NCBI GenBank assembly: GCA_965223545.1
Contig: OZ245006.1
Span: 1,600,001 to 1,664,000 of the forward strand
Reading direction: 5' to 3'
DNA: 64,000 nt
Origin: Planctomycetota bacterium
GTDB taxonomy: Bacteria; Planctomycetota; UBA1135; UBA2386
Part shown: piece by piece, positions 3,327 through 38,535 of the stretch
How positions within the stretch are numbered: position 1 is the stretch's first letter
Layout of the letters: each line of letters opens with the position of its first letter
The notes under the pieces: generated by a model
Told to the model about the DNA's origin: nothing
What the model saw: only the letters and a program-made list of their open reading frames with translations
Databases searched by the model: none
Translations under genes and position numbers: made by a program

Positions 3327-6135
3327 GCCGGGCGAGGGGCACGACCTCGCCGTAGCTCGCATCGACCGGCTCGACGACGAGGCGGTGCGCGGCGCCGTAG
3401 CCGTGCGCGGACACCACCTCGACCACGTACTCGTCGACTTCGAGTTCGAGGGCGGCCTGCCACGCTGACAGGTACGGCTCGACCGTGAAGCGGAGCACCC
3501 CACCCTGCGAGCCCCGCAGCGAGACGTCGAGGGGCCCGAACGGCGCCGCGGTCCCCGGATGCAAGAACTGCAGCACGCGCCGGAACATGCGGCGCTGCCC
3601 GCCCTCGGGCGCCACCGCCAGCAGCTCCACGGTGCCCGCATCGTGGACCTGCGCGCCGCGCAGCTCGAAGGGGCGCGATCGCCCGCCGCCGCTGCCGGCC
3701 TCGAGCCAACACGTGCCCTCCGGCAGTGCCTCCAGCTCCAGCGGGAGCCGCTCACCCGCGCCGACAACACCGAGTCGCAAGCGCCCCCAGTCGCGGTGAA
3801 CCAGGTAGATCGGCATCGGTGCGCGACTCTGAACGAGATGCGCGACGCCGCGGAGACCGGCCGTGCGCTGGTGGCGCCCCGCCACCTGCAGCTCGATCCC
3901 GTCACCGCCGGGCAGCGCCCCGCGGGCCACGGCGAGCGGCAGGGATACCGGCTCGCCATCGCGAATGCCATCGCGCGGATACACCGACAGCGTCCACGTG
4001 CGTTCGGCCTCGGTGCCCTCGACGGCAAAAGCGAAGCTCCCGTCCGCCTGCAAGATGGCGCGCTCCGTCAAACGACCGGCAGCGCGCTGCACCAACCAGT
4101 CCTCGGCCCGGCCGTGCCAACCCACGACGCGGCCATGCAGGCGGCGATACGAGCGACTCAGCTTCGCGCGCCAGGTCGCATGCCCCCCGCTGTCGACCAC
4201 CACGCTGCCCAATGCACGGCTGCCGCCGTCGGCAGACGTCGCGCTGACCCGGTGGGTTCCCGGAGTGACGCCGCGCAGCGCATAGCGTCCCGCCGCGTCG
4301 GTCCGCGCCGCGACATAGCCGAGCTCGAGCCAGGGGCGCCCGATGACGACGCGGGCCGACGGCACCGGCGCACCCGACTCGTCGACCACGACCCCACTGA
4401 CCTCGGCACAGACGGGCAACGACAGAGTCGTCCGCGCGCGCGCGCCGGCGGTGATCTCGACCTCCGCGGTCGCCACGCCGGAGGCACCTTCCGCGGCCTC
4501 GACGCGAACCCGACCGGGCGCGAGCGCGTCCACCGCGAACCGACCCTCGGCGTCGGTGCGCAACCGAATCGGCGCGGCACCGCGCACGTGCGCGCCGGCC
4601 GAGAGCTCGACCGAGGAAGCGGCGGCCACCGTGTCGATCACGCTCCCGACCTGAACGATCGCGCCCGGCCGCGGACGTCCGCGCGCGTCGACGACCACGC
4701 CCTCGAGCCGGCCAGCTCCCGCGAGCAAGGAGACCACCTGTTGTCCGCCGTCGGCGACCTGGAACACCGCCGCGCGATAGCCGGGTGCGCGCACCATGAC
4801 GTAGCCACCCCGGCGCACATAGGTCGTAAACGCGCCATCGGGCGAGCAGACTCCCAGCCGCTCGCACGGGATCCGGTCGGGGTCCGGCGCCGCCCAGAGC
4901 ACGGCGCCAGCAACCGGGCCGGCGTCGGCGACGACCACTCCATGCACGGCCACTACGTCCGCGGCCAACGCCACTTCCACCGTCGCCAGCTCGTTTCCGA
5001 CGATCTCGATCTCTCGCGTCTGGCCGGGCAGCCGCAGCAACCACCGGCCGGCGCGCAATCCCTCCATGCGCAACTCGCCGCGCGCGTCGGTGGTGCCTGC
5101 ACACGGCGCCTGGGCGGGCCTCGAGGTCGTTGGCTGCACGAGTTGTCGCGGACCCCAACGATCTTCGATCCGCGCCACCCAGTGCAGCGCGTCGTCGGCC
5201 AAGGCCTCCAGCCGAACCGGAACGCTCGGCGCCGGCGCACCGTCGCGCGCCACCCGCAGCAGCAGGCCGGTGCTGCCGGCAGCAACAGCGGTCGGCGCCG
5301 CGATCGCCACCCGGCGGCGCCAACCTCCGCCGACCGCGGACTCCGCCGCGGACACCGGATCGGCAACCCGAGCAAACCGCACCACGCCCGGCGGCGACTC
5401 CGCTGGTGGCAGCAAGACGCTGACCAGAGCGATCGTGGCACCGACGGCGGCGACACCGATCGTTGTGCGGCGCACCGCGCGCAGCTGCGAGGACTCGACG
5501 CCGCGCAGCGCTTCACCGTTCGCACCATTCGGCGTCGCGGCAGCCGCGGCGGGCTGCGCCCAGAACGCGGCGGCGAGCGCCGCTGCGAACCCGGCGGGCA
5601 GGTTGCGGCGCAACATCTCGAGGCCTCGGCTGAGCTGCACCCGCACCCGACCCGCTGGCCGCGACAGGCGCACCGCGATCTGCGCCGGCGTGGCGCCTTC
5701 GATCAGCCGTTGCTCGACCACGGCGCGGTACGGCTGTGGCAGACCAGCGACGCCACGGCGAACCGCTGCCAAGAACTCGCGCACCTCGACCTCGATGAGT
5801 GGATCAGCGCGGTCGTTCAGGCGCATGCGCTCGGGTTCGACGGAGTTGCCGCGCGCGCGCCGCACCCGCCGCACCCAGTTGTGGAGGATGCCGACGAGCC
5901 ACGGCCAAAGCGGCCGGTCGTCGTCCCAGCTGCGGGCCGATTCCAAGGCCGCGGCGAACGTCGCCTGCACGGCATCGTCGACGTCGGCGGGGTCATCGCA
6001 CAAGAACGCGGCGACCAACCTCAGTCGGGCGCCGGTACGGGCATAGATTTGCTCGATGCTGCCCGAGTCGCCGCGGTGGCGATAGCGCTCGAACAGCACC
6101 TCCAGCGACGGAGTCAGGGTCGGGGCCAGGTCCAC
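3292..6135 (-). CDS. ECF sigma-70 factor fused to a TM segment and carboxypeptidase-regulatory-like (Ig/prealbumin-like) repeats
   Basis: Region 2 DVDDAVQATF...LWPWLVGILHN; region 4 LPQPYRAVV...IAVRLSRPAGRVRVQLSRG; hydrophobic IGVAAVGATIALVSVLL; repeats GVVVDxxGxPVPxAxV / TDAxGRF. Confidence 0.88.
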   Translation of the reverse strand: MDLAPTLTPSLEVLFERYRHRGDSGSIEQIYARTGARLRLVAAFLCDDPADVDDAVQATFAAALESARSWDDDRPLWPWLVGILHNWVRRVRRARGNSVEPERMRLNDRADPLIEVEVREFLAAVRRGVAGLPQPYRAVVEQRLIEGATPAQIAVRLSRPAGRVRVQLSRGLEMLRRNLPAGFAAALAAAFWAQPAAAAATPNGANGEALRGVESSQLRAVRRTTIGVAAVGATIALVSVLLPPAESPPGVVRFARVADPVSAAESAVGGGWRRRVAIAAPTAVAAGSTGLLLRVARDGAPAPSVPVRLEALADDALHWVARIEDRWGPRQLVQPTTSRPAQAPCAGTTDARGELRMEGLRAGRWLLRLPGQTREIEIVGNELATVEVALAADVVAVHGVVVADAGPVAGAVLWAAPDPDRIPCERLGVCSPDGAFTTYVRRGGYVMVRAPGYRAAVFQVADGGQQVVSLLAGAGRLEGVVVDARGRPRPGAIVQVGSVIDTVAAASSVELSAGAHVRGAAPIRLRTDAEGRFAVDALAPGRVRVEAAEGASGVATAEVEITAGARARTTLSLPVCAEVSGVVVDESGAPVPSARVVIGRPWLELGYVAARTDAAGRYALRGVTPGTHRVSATSADGGSRALGSVVVDSGGHATWRAKLSRSYRRLHGRVVGWHGRAEDWLVQRAAGRLTERAILQADGSFAFAVEGTEAERTWTLSVYPRDGIRDGEPVSLPLAVARGALPGGDGIELQVAGRHQRTAGLRGVAHLVQSRAPMPIYLVHRDWGRLRLGVVGAGERLPLELEALPEGTCWLEAGSGGGRSRPFELRGAQVHDAGTVELLAVAPEGGQRRMFRRVLQFLHPGTAAPFGPLDVSLRGSQGGVLRFTVEPYLSAWQAALELEVDEYVVEVVSAHGYGAAHRLVVEPVDASYGEVVPLARLSGLTPIATRW

Positions 6136-32506: not shown

Positions 32507-33205
32507 TCAAGCCGGCCGCTCGCGGAAGTCCAACCGCCCCCGCGACCGCCGCCACCCGCCCTTCAGCAACCAGGTCCGCGCCCGCACCGTCGGCCGCGCC
32601 ACCGGCTCCGACAGCTCCACCCCCTCGCGCCACCCGTCGAACCAGGGCCCGGACGAGTAGACGTCGATCGCCTGCCGCGGCCGCTGCCGATGGTGCCAAG
32701 CATTCTGCAGCACATACACCAACGCCCGCCGCACCTCCGTCGGCGAGCGCAGCACCCGCTCGTGGAACCGCTCGGCAAACACCCGCCCCGAGCGCCCCCA
32801 CAGCTTGTTCAACCCCCGCGCCATCCGCACCAACAACCCGGTCATCCCCCGCGTCAACGCCTCCCGATCCTTCGCCTCCACCAGAAGGTGCAAGTGATCG
32901 CGCTGCACCGAGAACTCCACCAACCGAAACCCGAACCGCCCACACCCCGCCCGGATCCGCTCCACCAACATCCAGTACGTCCGCGCATTCCGTAAGCCCG
33001 GCAACCCCCGACACAACCGCACCGTCACGTGCAACGGATACCGCGCCACCAACGCCCCCCGCGCCAAGTGCGGCACCGTCTCATCACTCACCTTGGGCCG
33101 ACCAGCCCCCTCCCGAGCCCCACCCCACTGCCGAAACGGCAACTCACCCTGCACCACCCCACGGCGCCGTCCACCGCGACGCGGCCGAATCGTCTCGCTC
33201 GTCAT
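32507..33205 (-). CDS. REP-associated tyrosine (HUH/Y1) transposase, RAYT-like
   Basis: PLHVTVR, FSVQRDHLHLLVE (HUH), GRVFAERFH, ALVYVLQN (catalytic Tyr), YSSG; N-terminal WGGAREGAGRP. Confidence 0.85.
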   Translation of the reverse strand: MTSETIRPRRGGRRRGVVQGELPFRQWGGAREGAGRPKVSDETVPHLARGALVARYPLHVTVRLCRGLPGLRNARTYWMLVERIRAGCGRFGFRLVEFSVQRDHLHLLVEAKDREALTRGMTGLLVRMARGLNKLWGRSGRVFAERFHERVLRSPTEVRRALVYVLQNAWHHRQRPRQAIDVYSSGPWFDGWREGVELSEPVARPTVRARTWLLKGGWRRSRGRLDFRERPA

Positions 33206-33499
33206 TTGAATTAGCGACCTTACTAAAAAAGGTGTGGGCATGCAAGAACACACAAGAAATCCACGGAGGGCGGTCGCCGAGGGTGACGGAGCGGAGGCGA
33301 GTGCGCACCGCTCCGCGACGAAACACGCACTCCTACGTGCAACTCTTGATTCCGCGATCTTCAGTCCAAGCGGTACGAACACGCATCACGACCGGGACCG
33401 CCGCCCGCAGCTCTCGATCCAGAGGCCGAGGGAGCACGCAGGCGCGCCCCCAGAGCTCCCACCACCTCCAGCTCCAGAGCTGAAGGCTCGCCTCACCAC

Positions 33500-35532
33500 G
33501 CCGAGTAGCCGCGGGGGGTTGCCCCCCCGCAGCTCTCACAGAACCGGACTTGTGGGTCACACATCCGGCTCTTCAGGACGGTATCCCCCAAAGGGGCCGC
33601 CAGTCGTAGCGGCGCTCGTCCCAGAGCTTGGAAAGCGACACCAGCCGCTCAGCAAACCACTGATTGGGATAAGCGCGTTTGATCGCTCCCGAGTTGCTCT
33701 GCCACCACGTGCCACGCCGGCCAAACGCGGTGCGTGCAGCCGACTGCCAGCTGCACCCACGGGCGACAAGGTCTCGGAAGAGGTATCGCGGTCTCTTCTT
33801 CTGCCGAATGATGATCGCCCGCAGGCGTCGTCGAATATGGCCATCGAGATTCCGCAAGGTCCGCCACGCGGCCTTCGTGATCAGCTTGAAGTAGCCGATC
33901 CAACCACGGAGGTAACGGTTCAGTCGTTCGATGCACCAGGACAGCCGACCACCCCAGGACCGCGGCGTAAGCTCACGGATTCGGGCGTCGATGCGATCCA
34001 GAGTGCGACGGGACAACTGCACCGTCAGCCAGCCCTTTCGAGTTGCGCCTACGCGAAACCCGAGGAAGTGCCGGCGATGGGCCAGGTCGACGGAACTCTT
34101 CGCTTCGTTCACTTTCAGTCGCACGCGACGTTCGATGAACCTGCGAATCGAAGCCATGACCCGGTGTCCTGAGCGCTCGCTACCGACGTAGATATTGCAG
34201 TCGTCGGCGTAGCGCACAAAACGCAACCCGCGTCGTTCCAACTCCCAGTCCAGTTCGTCCAGGACGATGTTGGACAGCAGAGGTGATAGCGGGCCGCCCT
34301 GGGGCGTTCCTTCTTCCGTGATGACGCGGGTGCCATCTGGAAGAACCACGTTCGCTTTCAGCATCAGGCGGATGATCCGCAGCACCCGACGGTCCTTCAC
34401 CTTCTGAGCCAGCCGGTCCAGGAGGCGTTGGTGATGGACACGGTCGAAGAACTTCTCCAAATCGATGTCCACCGTGTACCGCCGACCCTGCTTCACGTAA
34501 CCCGCTGCTTCGGCGATCGCTGTGTGGGCTCCCCGCCTCGGCCGGAAGCCGTGGCTGCTGTCGTGGAACGTCGGGTCGTAGATCGGCTCCAGAATCTGGC
34601 GCACGGCCTGTTGGACCCAGCGGTCGATCACGGTTGGAATCCCGAGACCCCGCTGCCCACCACTGGGCTTCGGGATCCACACCCGACGAATATCGCCGGG
34701 CGCGTAGGTCTCCATGAGCAGAGCATCGCGGAGTTTCGGGAGCAGGTGTTTCGCATGACGCTTGACCTCTGACACCGTCTGTCCGTCGACGCCCGGGGCG
34801 CCCTTCTTGCTTACGACATGTGCCAGTGCGCTTCGCAGGTTGCCCTGCTCCGCGACCAGCTCCAGCAGATGGCAGTAGCCGTCCGCTGGCGGCGGAGCCG
34901 ATTCCGATCGATGGCTGCAATCCGTCGTAGGCACCGACGTGGACTTCGTGGCAGATTCGTCTGCCCTTCCGGCCACGCCGTCCCCTTGCGGGCTCTCGGC
35001 GAAAGCGAACTGCAGTTGCCGTGGTTTCGGCTTTCTCATCCTGTCACCCCCTTCGCTCCACCGGCATTACCCGGCTTCATCACTACTACGGGGTGATCCG
35101 ACTTCTCTGCATGCCTTGGTGGGTCGTCGTTGCCTCCTCCCCACCTACCGCTCGAAGCGGACACACAGAGATCTCCCTGGGTAAGAACGCAGAGTTTCGC
35201 GCCGCCGCCGGTTCCAGTACTCCGAGGTCGCGACTGGATATCGGGCGTCACGTTGGATGGCACGCTGACCCAGACCTCGAGAGCCTTACGGAACTTCGCT
35301 TTCGCTCGGTGCTGCGCTGCGTCTAGGGCTTCCATCCCACACGACCTCGCGGGAACAGCACGGCACGGTGTCCGTCCTGTTCTGGCATCCCGGATCAACA
35401 CCGCGCACCGCCCTCTCGGACGGCACACGGCTCCCCTTTCTGCCTCGTGCAGCTGCCTTCGACTCATGGTTTCCTCCAGTACGGATCCATAAAGAACTTT
35501 CATCTTCAACTCTGCGCCCATGCCAGGCGCAA
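33500..35532 (-). mobile_element. Full-length group II intron (IIC-like), 2033 nt
   Basis: 5' TTGCGCCTGGCATGGGCGCAG; D5 GAGCCGGATGTGTGACCCACAAGTCCGGTTC; D6 CTGCGGGGGGCAACCCCCCGCGGCTACTCGGC; removal restores a repeat unit. Confidence 0.92.
33573..35039 (-). CDS. ltrA: Group II intron reverse transcriptase/maturase, class C-like, no endonuclease domain
   Basis: GAPGVDG, RRVWIPKP, LGIPTVIDR, GFRP, DIDLEKFFDRV, GTPQGGPLSPLL, RYADD, FLGF, RGWIGYF. Confidence 0.95.
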   Translation of the reverse strand: MRKPKPRQLQFAFAESPQGDGVAGRADESATKSTSVPTTDCSHRSESAPPPADGYCHLLELVAEQGNLRSALAHVVSKKGAPGVDGQTVSEVKRHAKHLLPKLRDALLMETYAPGDIRRVWIPKPSGGQRGLGIPTVIDRWVQQAVRQILEPIYDPTFHDSSHGFRPRRGAHTAIAEAAGYVKQGRRYTVDIDLEKFFDRVHHQRLLDRLAQKVKDRRVLRIIRLMLKANVVLPDGTRVITEEGTPQGGPLSPLLSNIVLDELDWELERRGLRFVRYADDCNIYVGSERSGHRVMASIRRFIERRVRLKVNEAKSSVDLAHRRHFLGFRVGATRKGWLTVQLSRRTLDRIDARIRELTPRSWGGRLSWCIERLNRYLRGWIGYFKLITKAAWRTLRNLDGHIRRRLRAIIIRQKKRPRYLFRDLVARGCSWQSAARTAFGRRGTWWQSNSGAIKRAYPNQWFAERLVSLSKLWDERRYDWRPLWGIPS

Positions 35533-36384
35533 CATCACCGACGACAGCGGTCCAAGACGAGGCACGGGGTGCGACCGCCGCCGACGGTGACGGAGCTGAG
35601 GCGAGTGCGCAACACTCCGCGACGAAACGCGCACTCCTACGCGCGCTCTTGATTCCGTGACCTTCAGTCCAACCGGTACGACCACGCATCACGACGGGGA
35701 CCCGCCGCCCGCAGCTCCGTCACCATCGGCGTCGGTCGCACCCTGTGCCTCGTCTTGGACCGGCGCTGATGGTGATGGAGCTGCGGGCGGCCCCGCTAGC
35801 TCTCGATCCAGAGGCCGAGGGAGCGCGCAGCGCCCCCAGAGCTCCCACCACCTCCAGCTCCAGAGCTGAAGGCTCGCCGCAGCACCATCACCGACGACAG
35901 CGGTCCAAGACGAGGCACGGGGTGCGACCGCCGCCGACGGTGACGGAGCTGAGGCGAGTGCGCAACACTCCGCGACGAAACGCGCACTCCTACGCGCGCT
36001 CTTGATTCCGTGACCTTCAGTCCAACCGGTACGACCACGCATCACGACCGGGACCGCCGCCCGCAGCTCCGTCACCATCGGCGTCGGTCGCACCCTGTGC
36101 CTCGTCTTGGACCAGCGCTGATGGTGATGGAGCTGCGGGCGGCCCCGCTAGCTCTCGATCCAGAGGCCGAGGGAGCACGCAGGCGCGCCCCCAGAGCTCC
36201 TACCACCTCCAGCTCCAGAGCTGAAGGCTCGCCGCAGCACCCTCACCGACGACAGCGGTCCAAGACGAGGCACGGGGTGCGACCGCCGCCGACGGTGACG
36301 GAGCTGAGGCGAGTGCGCACCACTCCGCGACGACACGCGCACGCCGGGCATCGGGTGGAGCGTGGCGGTTTCTCCCGGGCGGAC

Positions 36385-37821: not shown

Positions 37822-38535
37822 TCAGACCTTGACCGACTTGCGCAGCACGACGTAGGCCGAGCGGTGGCCGGGGATCGCGCCCTTGATGAAGACGAGATTG
37901 CGCTCCTCGTCGACCTTGACCACTTCGAGGTTCTGCACGGTGCGCTGCTCGTCGCCGTAGTGACCCGCCATGTGCTTGCCCTTGGGCACGCCGTGGTGGG
38001 TCGAGTAGGTGCGGCCGATGCCACCAGCGCGCCGGTGGTTCTTGCTGTTGCCGTGGGTCGTCGCCTGCCGGCCGAACCCCCACCGCTTGATGGTGCCCGC
38101 CCAACCGCGACCCTTGGTCGTGCCGATCACGTCGACGCGCGCGACGTCCTTCAGCACATCGACCTTGATCTCGTCACCCGCCTTGCACTCGGGCATGCCC
38201 TCGTAGCGCAGCTCGCGAACGAATGCCTTGGCGCCACTGCCGGCCTTGGCGGCGTGGCCGCGCTCGGCCTTGCTGGCGGCCTTGTCGGTCTTGTCGTCGA
38301 AGCCGAGCTGCACCGCGTAGTAGCCGTCGGTCCGCCGCGGGCGGTCGTGCTTGCCGCGGCGCTTGCCCAGGTTGGTGGCCGCACCGCGCTGATCCTCCGG
38401 CAACTCGGCCAAGTCGTTGCACTTGACCTGCAGCACCTTGCACGGCCCGGCCTCCACCACCGTCACCGGCACGCAGGTGCCGTCCGGCTGGAAGATCTGC
38501 GTCATGCCGAGCTTCTTACCGAGGATTCCGATCAT
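37822..38535 (-). CDS. rplC: 50S ribosomal protein L3 with N-terminal-region insertion
   Basis: [61 protein letters not shown]. Confidence 0.95.

Follow-up and report, generated by a model that had tools for sequence, protein, structure and literature searches.

Why does a group II intron stand exactly at the foot of a DNA hairpin, upstream of a gene resembling those of REP-associated tyrosine transposases (RAYT; REP, repetitive extragenic palindrome), and is this hairpin its regular target? The question is raised by a stretch of 64,000 nucleotides from a Planctomycetota bacterium (assembly GCA_965223545.1, contig OZ245006.1, positions 1,600,001 to 1,664,000), referred to here as the window; coordinates are those of the window unless a genome label precedes them. 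The window belongs to a chromosome of 8.07 Mb with 69.7% GC. An earlier note on this DNA had proposed that a lineage of group IIC (class C) introns uses REP-like hairpins, maintained by a RAYT, as a renewable target. The analysis presented here leads to a narrower answer: the element is quite probably a recently active group II retroelement without an endonuclease, from a sister lineage of class C, which homes to hairpins of one family linked to a Y1 gene and to ISL3 elements. Hairpin-homing IIC-like introns are known; apparently new here are the Y1/ISL3-linked hairpin as a target and the sister clade, which is distinguished by an AGC catalytic triad.

The intron occupies 2,033 nt (33500..35532, - strand), has the ends TTGCG...CTCGGC and is one of 14 genomic copies with 99.5-100% identity. 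Its left boundary is ...CCTCACCAC|GCCGAG and its right boundary ...GGCGCAA|CATCACCGACGAC, where the bar marks the insertion point. The insertion is accompanied by no target duplication, and excision of the intron restores the repeat unit, as the earlier note had stated; the joined site differs from the intact unit at 35871-35898 by two mismatches in the 15 nt quoted. The intron ends are identical in 14/14 copies, though the flanks differ.

The intron encodes a class C-like reverse transcriptase (RT)/maturase of 488 aa without an endonuclease domain (33573..35039, -). The protein scores 373 bits against TIGR04416 (cut-off 300), and RVT_1 and GIIM are its only domains; its best PDB match is the GsI-IIC RT (402 bits), and 7uim is also among the best PDB matches. 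One extra base is present near the end of the open reading frame (ORF) in the intron copies G000:C1:1355549-1357582 and 6127148-6129181 (G000 being the host genome), and 515-aa forms of the intron protein are listed from the same contig in a protein collection.

The domain I core (35186..35356, -) corresponds to the Rfam family RF02001, group-II-D1D4-3 (73 bits, E 1.2e-12), which is matched by the intron over its full length and also matches L002, a canonical intron with a CGC triad. Exon-binding site 1 (EBS1), CAUC (35256..35259, -), was assigned by analogy and is supported by covariation in the clade described below; it pairs with the intron-binding site 1 (IBS1) GATG in nine copies or, via a G.U wobble, with GGTG in five. 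EBS3 is C (35217..35217, -), and the first base of the 3' exon (IBS3) is G in 12 of the 14 copies and A in two. EBS2 is probably lacking, judging by the match to the RF02001 model and by the 493-nt 5' leader. Domain V (33541..33571, -) comprises 31 nt with an IIC-like short distal stem, 3 bp in our reading, and the AGC triad at 33570-33568. Domain VI (33500..33536, -) carries a bulged A at 33506 (position -7). The epsilon-prime bulge motif is UGGAA in the Rfam alignment, and AGGAA is kept in some clade members.

The occupied hairpin (type A, 35533..35592, -) forms the end of the 5' exon, which terminates in the IBS1 GATG. Its stem (35592-35573 with 35552-35533) ends at the insertion point and the intron lies at its 3' base, just as the earlier note had described. 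The 20-bp stem mentioned there does comprise 20 positions, which by our count are 16 Watson-Crick pairs, three G.T and one T.T. The intron-sense strand folds better (-19.1 kcal/mol, z -3.2) than the opposite one (-15.8, z -1.1), and the statement that the hairpin folds well only on the former is slightly too strong. The intron interrupts a mosaic array of ~353-nt units upstream of the Y1 gene (33275..36345, unstranded), in which four more hairpins are found. An empty type A hairpin (35886..35945, -) retains an intact GATG|G at 35886/35885, and another empty one (36241..36300, -) has an altered IBS1. The earlier note had counted both as equivalent empty sites; this holds for 35885/35886 and not for 36240/36241, because the IBS1 of the latter is GAGG. 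It had overlooked two empty hairpins of the family on the opposite strand, both of type B: one of 88 nt with 34-bp arms and the site GATG|G at 35777/35778 (35704..35791, +) and one at 36056..36143 (+). Type B hairpins hold the intron at four other places in the genome.

One hairpin family precedes 13 of the 14 full intron copies in the chromosome. Eleven copies stand in arrays upstream of Y1 genes at eight loci (seven oriented as the gene, four opposite), and two in the left end of an ISL3 element, a third copy of which is empty. The ISL3-linked family hairpins of the host are located at G000:C1:2607068-2608490, 3672900-3676390 and 5060150-5063630. Within the family five distinct insertion positions are used (type A, type A 3 nt upstream, type B, a type B variant and ISL3), and insertions occur in both orientations relative to the Y1 gene. 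The same 5' arm is present in 13/13 hairpin targets, including the ISL3 form with its different loop and 3' arm. A search with a pattern of this arm gives 28 hairpins of the family, of which 23 stand beside Y1 genes, three in ISL3 and two alone; 13 are occupied and 15 empty. Around the intron copies, the flanks seen consist of Y1 arrays, ISL3 ends and a single sulfatase gene. Since the target hairpins are non-coding, host genes are spared at them and all Y1 reading frames are intact.

Targeting of generic terminators was rejected, given the IBS1 GATG/GGTG, the T-poor exons and the lack of a terminator-like site at the junction. The intron is IIC-like, as the earlier note had called it. That note had also named insertion of other copies after generic terminators or unrelated hairpins as the outcome that would speak against its proposal; within this genome the proposal passes, because 13/14 copies follow the same family.

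The order of events can be read from sequence divergence. The Y1 genes differ pairwise by 17-54 of 696 nt (1,514 synonymous versus 595 non-synonymous codon differences over all pairs), whereas the introns have 16 variable columns in all. Five intron copies identical to one another occupy two type A sites, two type B sites and the ectopic site, with differing flanks. The introns are thus younger than the Y1 copies, and most insertions would therefore be independent homing events; the near-identity of the copies speaks for recent mobility. These sequence ages indicate that the intron invaded after the Y1 copies had spread, and co-transposition of the intron with the Y1 element at the Y1 loci was rejected on the same ground. 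In sequencing run X4, which may come from the assembly's own study, contig depth is 3,916-5,509 over the intron versus 342 and 703 on the flanks, depth not being equal to copy number. A 129-nt piece from run X5 (another study) crosses the 5' junction without difference; X5 and X6 contain only scattered pieces of low depth. No junction of an empty allele appeared among these contigs, a form of data in which rare variants are lost, and empty units are present at other places. Both the depth and the X5 junction piece speak against an assembly artefact.

The following mechanism could account for this distribution. A particle of RT and intron lariat would, most likely at the replication fork, bind a DNA hairpin in single-stranded form. 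The 4-nt EBS1 and the 1-nt EBS3 would pair with bases at the 3' foot of the hairpin, where the intron would reverse-splice and then be copied by its own RT. As the sequence shows, EBS1 and EBS3 are tuned to G(A/G)TG|G and not to the T-tail of a terminator, and this rule together with the hairpin selects one family in the genome. The target family lies upstream of a RAYT-like Y1 gene, which multiplies itself, and in the left end of ISL3; 13 of the 28 hairpins were filled after the Y1 copies spread. Splicing itself, homing at the fork that depends on the hairpin, and whatever part the Y1 protein plays are steps that we infer.

The lineage of the intron was defined in a tree of 182 RT loci, 18 of them without a triad score. 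Thirty-four loci, including that of the window, form a long-branched clade with support 1.0; the domain V triad is AGC in 32/32 scored loci of the clade versus CGC in 132/132 outside it. In a tree rooted with six distant RTs, in which a curated reference set (attC lineage, g6, U1/U2) was not included, the 40 CGC introns, drawn at random, together form the sister group of the AGC clade (support of the pair 0.99, of the AGC clade 0.87). One clade row (L025) and the outgroups L225 and L227 come from the genome G218, which is unpublished and requires the permission of its depositors. PMC8919778 names g6, U1 and U2 as neighbours of class C. A clade-specific domain V pattern gave no match in viral contigs. 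The RT of one clade member, L249 (G129:C229:3528-4946), has a single in-frame TAG.

The 5' exons of the clade are T-poor, with at least five T in the last 12 nt in 1/29 loci versus 62/95 outside. An anchored EBS pattern matched 21/29 loci, from which the near-duplicates L242, L247, L248 and L025 were dropped before counting. In the remaining 17 loci EBS1-IBS1 pairing averages 3.35 of 4 positions, compared with 1.96 +/- 0.19 after shuffling, and this value was reached in 0/20,000 shuffles; EBS3 and IBS3 form a Watson-Crick pair in 13/17 loci (14/20,000 shuffles). Both shuffle counts overstate the significance, because related loci are not independent. There are 16 different EBS1s among the 17 loci, and EBS1 and EBS3 change with the target.

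Comparison with canonical introns explains the cautious class assignment. According to Toor 2006 (PMC1702495), IIC introns are defined by CGC, a shorter domain V, AGGAA, a 3-4-bp EBS1 and the lack of EBS2. Like those of class C/IIC (B.h.I1, GsI-IIC and the E.r. intron with MarathonRT), the intron of the window has an endonuclease-less RT, a domain I of the RF02001 type, a 4-nt EBS1 with EBS3, a short domain V and insertion at the 3' foot of a stem-loop (PMC1702495, PMC10190682). Unlike them, it has AGC instead of CGC and UGGAA instead of AGGAA, its RT falls into the sister clade, its EBS1 is not A-rich, its targets lack a T-tail and IBS1 lies within the 3' arm of a long stem. The intron thus shows the structural and targeting features of IIC and not CGC/AGGAA, and is therefore regarded as IIC-like in function rather than filed as a canonical member. 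A literature search, which did not extend to supplements and most subscription papers, found no description of a class C sister lineage with an AGC triad and none of a IIC intron homing to Y1-linked hairpins; the accessible parts of PMC8919778, PMC3552965, PMC3733652 and 10.64898/2026.09.22.753630 do not describe the AGC lineage. It may already be present in curated intron databases.

Whether the preference for one family exceeds chance was assessed on an intron-free copy of the chromosome, where upstream stems were scored at all 98,619 G[AG]TG|R sites. At a stem score of at least 35, 13/68 family sites are occupied versus 0/646 others; for GATG|G only, the figures are 9/27 versus 0/111. A better control than all non-family stems is provided by a second palindrome family, which is intergenic (122 hits at 80 loci) and whose stems end in GATG. 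No intron lies within 300 nt of this family and 0/43 of its scored sites are used, for which reason it was rejected as an intron target. Targeting in the host genome is far from chance.

The best surviving alternative, less probable than family-directed homing and still to be taken seriously, assumes generic targeting followed by selection: G(A/G)TG|G behind any stable hairpin could serve, the family would merely offer harmless intergenic sites, and other insertions would have been purged. The structural bias of IIC introns (PMC7306698) suits such a model, as do the single ectopic copy in a gene, the predominance of A as IBS3 in the second family and a relative in genome G213 that uses several hairpin types with a common purine-rich end. 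However, IBS3 is A at two occupied sites as well, yet strong second-family stems with GATG|A are all unused, including some that score 55-72, above every occupied site. The same 5' arm in all 13 hairpin targets, the ISL3 form included, is also not expected under this model.

Several observations weigh against homing directed to one hairpin family. The occupancy control is confounded: most non-family hairpins probably lie in genes, where insertions would be purged; several of the scored family sites share one hairpin and are hence not independent, and most second-family sites have A, not G, at IBS3. The ectopic copy (G000:C1:2456636-2458668), which interrupts the C-terminal part of a sulfatase gene in antisense, has no strong hairpin. 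The two ISL3 copies carry identical introns at an identical site and may represent one event. Among the relatives, 8/27 clade 5' exons reach z <= -2 in a 45-nt window, a length too short for the 60-nt hairpin of the window intron itself, which the test also misses; some of the closest relatives (L230, L242 and L246-L248) show no clear 5' hairpin. Finally, the bias towards the lagging-strand template is not significant (10/14 copies, p 0.09, strand taken from GC skew). Within the family a trend in the same direction is seen (9/13 occupied versus 4/15 empty hairpins, p 0.056).

Genome G213 contains 11 full copies of a relative with 54% identity. Ten of its 5' exons can be read; by our reading they end in hairpins of three to five types, with a purine-rich end in common, and two of these types are parts of dispersed repeats, for which patterns gave 51 and 87 hits; no PF01797 match was found in the G213 genome. 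Tandem introns occupy adjacent units of a single repeat array in G213 (L207/L208 and L212/L215, 80 and ~370 nt apart). A copy on a Sinorhizobium meliloti plasmid lies just past an istB remnant and was read as inserted in a hairpin loop at an IS21 end, while L020 is inserted in the hairpin belonging to an ORF6N gene. L096, the relative nearest to the window intron (73%), differs from it in the 3' exon, stands upstream of a 23S_rRNA_IVP gene and lacks its 5' end. The flanks fetched for the remaining 33 clade loci and for 12 G213 loci, many of them short, contained no Y1 gene of the family, and PF01797 was matched by 0/136 of the flanking frames scanned (136 of 151 listed). The earlier note had proposed to test whether the 5' exons of close RT homologues are the same repeat family; other palindromic repeats, ends of insertion sequences (IS) or genes are found instead. 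The link to the Y1 element appears to belong to the window intron, its relatives having retuned EBS1 to other palindromes.

From these data a bolder scenario can be drawn, which we regard as doubtful. An unnamed sister class of IIC, with AGC and a retunable EBS1/EBS3, would have left terminators for the palindromes of selfish elements. The member in the window would read one hairpin family by its shape and in effect be a hyperparasite. The element that it exploits would be a RAYT-like Y1 element, undescribed so far, which copies itself and the HUH protein of which would keep producing landing sites.

The Y1/HUH gene next to the array (32507..33205, -) encodes 232 aa. The HUH motif of the protein is DHLH and the catalytic Tyr lies in YVLQN; PF01797 is matched narrowly (25.8 bits, cut-off 23), NF047646 (NCBIfam) stays below its cut-off (35.4 bits versus 80) and no PDB match was found. 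Twelve intact copies with 94-98% identity and one fragment are present in the genome. Like RAYT/TnpA-REP genes (class 2 TnpA-Y1, PMC6006769), the gene has an HUH and Tyr core, a downstream SS motif and flanking long hairpins. Class 2 TnpA-Y1 are described as having Y---NP and a low number of divergent copies (Quentin et al. 2018, PMC6006769), and RAYTs as typically single-copy (Bertels et al., PMC5581495). The protein studied here, unlike these, has YVLQNA in place of Y---NP, with N followed by A, G or C in its relatives, and its gene occurs in 12 near-identical copies. The Y---Q motif and the fixed ends of IS200/IS605 are lacking too. The left ends of the copies are ragged, and alignment of the downstream flanks gave no sequence past the stop codon common to all copies, so that fixed transposon ends for the Y1 element were rejected. 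Subsets of the copies have ~10-60 nt of downstream flank in common (2432303/3214871/6357308; 6129588/8056512/6749907; 5691536/7214121). Together with the ragged left ends, these shared flanks suggest copying of the Y1 gene with variable ends. The gene can be called RAYT-like; it fits neither the RAYT nor the IS200 definition.

The motif AAGGTCGC..AAT(T)CAA stands directly before the Y1 start codon (33206-33222), with a variant in each upstream unit, and several Y1 relatives have CCAATCAAG ahead of ATG. This motif could be a candidate recognition or cleavage site of the HUH protein.

Y1 homologues occur in 48/201 genomes of the class, the host included, often in many copies. The family hairpin adjoins them in G011 (2/2 copies), G017 and G164, from which it follows that the link between hairpin and Y1 gene is real and older than the host genome. 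G017 has 28 Y1 matches and 71 hairpin pattern hits, and in the three regions fetched the gene has hairpins on either side; the loci L282-L284 of this genome are tandem Y1 copies, each with an upstream hairpin and a related downstream one. In G686 (84% complete) the family hairpin is found in ISL3 and IS21 ends and no Y1 match was found. The hairpin thus occurs in ISL3 left ends in two genomes and in an IS21 end in G686 (loci including L286 and L288). The class-wide pattern search yielded mostly single hits with one mismatch; those in G000, G011, G017, G164 and G686 were taken as real, and the hits in G025 were rejected as chance matches in genes. The hairpin feet are mostly GCAG/TCAG, unlike the GT[AG]G of REPs, and one lone copy has a double foot GTAG...CTAC. 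The hairpin is barely dispersed away from the gene and is best called mobile-element-linked with REP-like feet, being mostly element-linked and not a dispersed REP. The Y1 protein may make or move it.

Two other Y1 genes of the host (YIDHNP; G000:C1:1729907-1730233 and 3914571-3914900) have a TIRYT-like layout and are bracketed by inverted copies of the abundant palindrome family present at 80 loci.

The three-layer system of the earlier note, in which a domesticated RAYT renews REP hairpins and an intron lineage is specialised on them as the IIC-attC introns are on attC, seems unlikely against this background. It draws on the 11/14 copies in Y1-adjacent arrays at eight loci, on the hairpins beside Y1 homologues in G011, G017 and G164 and on the lone hairpin with the canonical double foot. 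On the other hand, the Y1 gene behaves as a mobile element and not as a single-copy RAYT (PMC5581495), the hairpin is also found in ISL3 and IS21 ends, G011 and G017 carry hairpins but no RT match at E 1e-60, and the clade shows neither a further Y1 neighbour in the fetched flanks nor, in G213, anything but repeats in a genome without a PF01797 match. The strict terms RAYT and REP do not apply to 12 copies of 94-98% identity without Y---NP, below the NF047646 cut-off, and to a hairpin standing in 23/28 cases beside Y1 and otherwise known from ISL3/IS21 ends. The model thus fits the host genome loosely and fails for the lineage, in which a relative with 11 copies uses several unrelated dispersed repeats. 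Spread of one insertion by transposition, gene conversion or array recombination, or a repeat misassembly, is highly improbable and, as regards 12-13 events, already refuted in large part: the mosaic arrays do resemble each other and the two ISL3 copies carry identical introns at one site, but the five insertion positions in both orientations, the identical introns in differing flanks, the high X4 depth over the intron and the unchanged 5' junction in the X5 piece oppose it.

Family-directed hairpin homing can be compared with several known systems. Three target modes are distinguished for bacterial group II introns, namely homing sites, terminators and attC (PMC4424553); the latter two are named as targets of IIC introns (PMC4424553, PMC7923331), and Toor 2006 already allows 'other inverted repeats' (PMC1702495). 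In IIC targeting, structure weighs more than sequence (PMC7306698, PMC10190682). The IIC-attC introns have the IBS1/IBS3 consensus TTGT|T in the attC bottom strand (PMC7923331), unlike the G(A/G)TG|G of the window intron, whose target is a Y1/ISL3-linked hairpin; the wider AGC clade, also unlike them, has no single target type. RmInt2 of Sinorhizobium meliloti, which inserts into the inverted repeats of ISRm17, is likewise a multi-copy intron in repeated non-coding parts of another element, on both strands (PMC4615759, PMC5894124). In contrast to the window intron, RmInt2 belongs to class D, pairs through EBS2 and recognises terminal repeats of an IS by their sequence, whereas the window intron depends on short EBS pairing only, plus the hairpin. 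Palindromic repeats as landing sites are shared with IS1397, IS621, ISPpu9/10 and the REP-associated group II introns of P. putida KT2440, where 2/9 group II introns are located at REPs (Tobes and Pareja 2006, PMC1525189). Unlike these elements, the window intron has 13/14 copies in one family, with EBS1/EBS3 matching, and leaves an abundant palindrome family unused.

The host thus provides a quantified natural example of a further target mode: of the sites that one family offers in a single genome, 13 are occupied and 15 empty. A clade with target-matched EBS1/EBS3 makes the choice of a IIC particle among DNA hairpins directly testable. IIC introns have so far been unused as targetrons (PMC7923331), and a naturally retunable IIC-like branch may be useful in this respect. 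The Y1 family, which is multi-copy, has hairpins linked to it and is present in 48/201 genomes of the class, merits its own study.

A second, distant group II-type RT of another class, with 37% identity, is encoded in the host chromosome at G000:C1:4530834-4531541. The window also contains an ORF (37822-38535, -) that resembles ribosomal protein L3. In place of the usual operon neighbours, a short basic ORF comes next, together with a flavoprotein gene.

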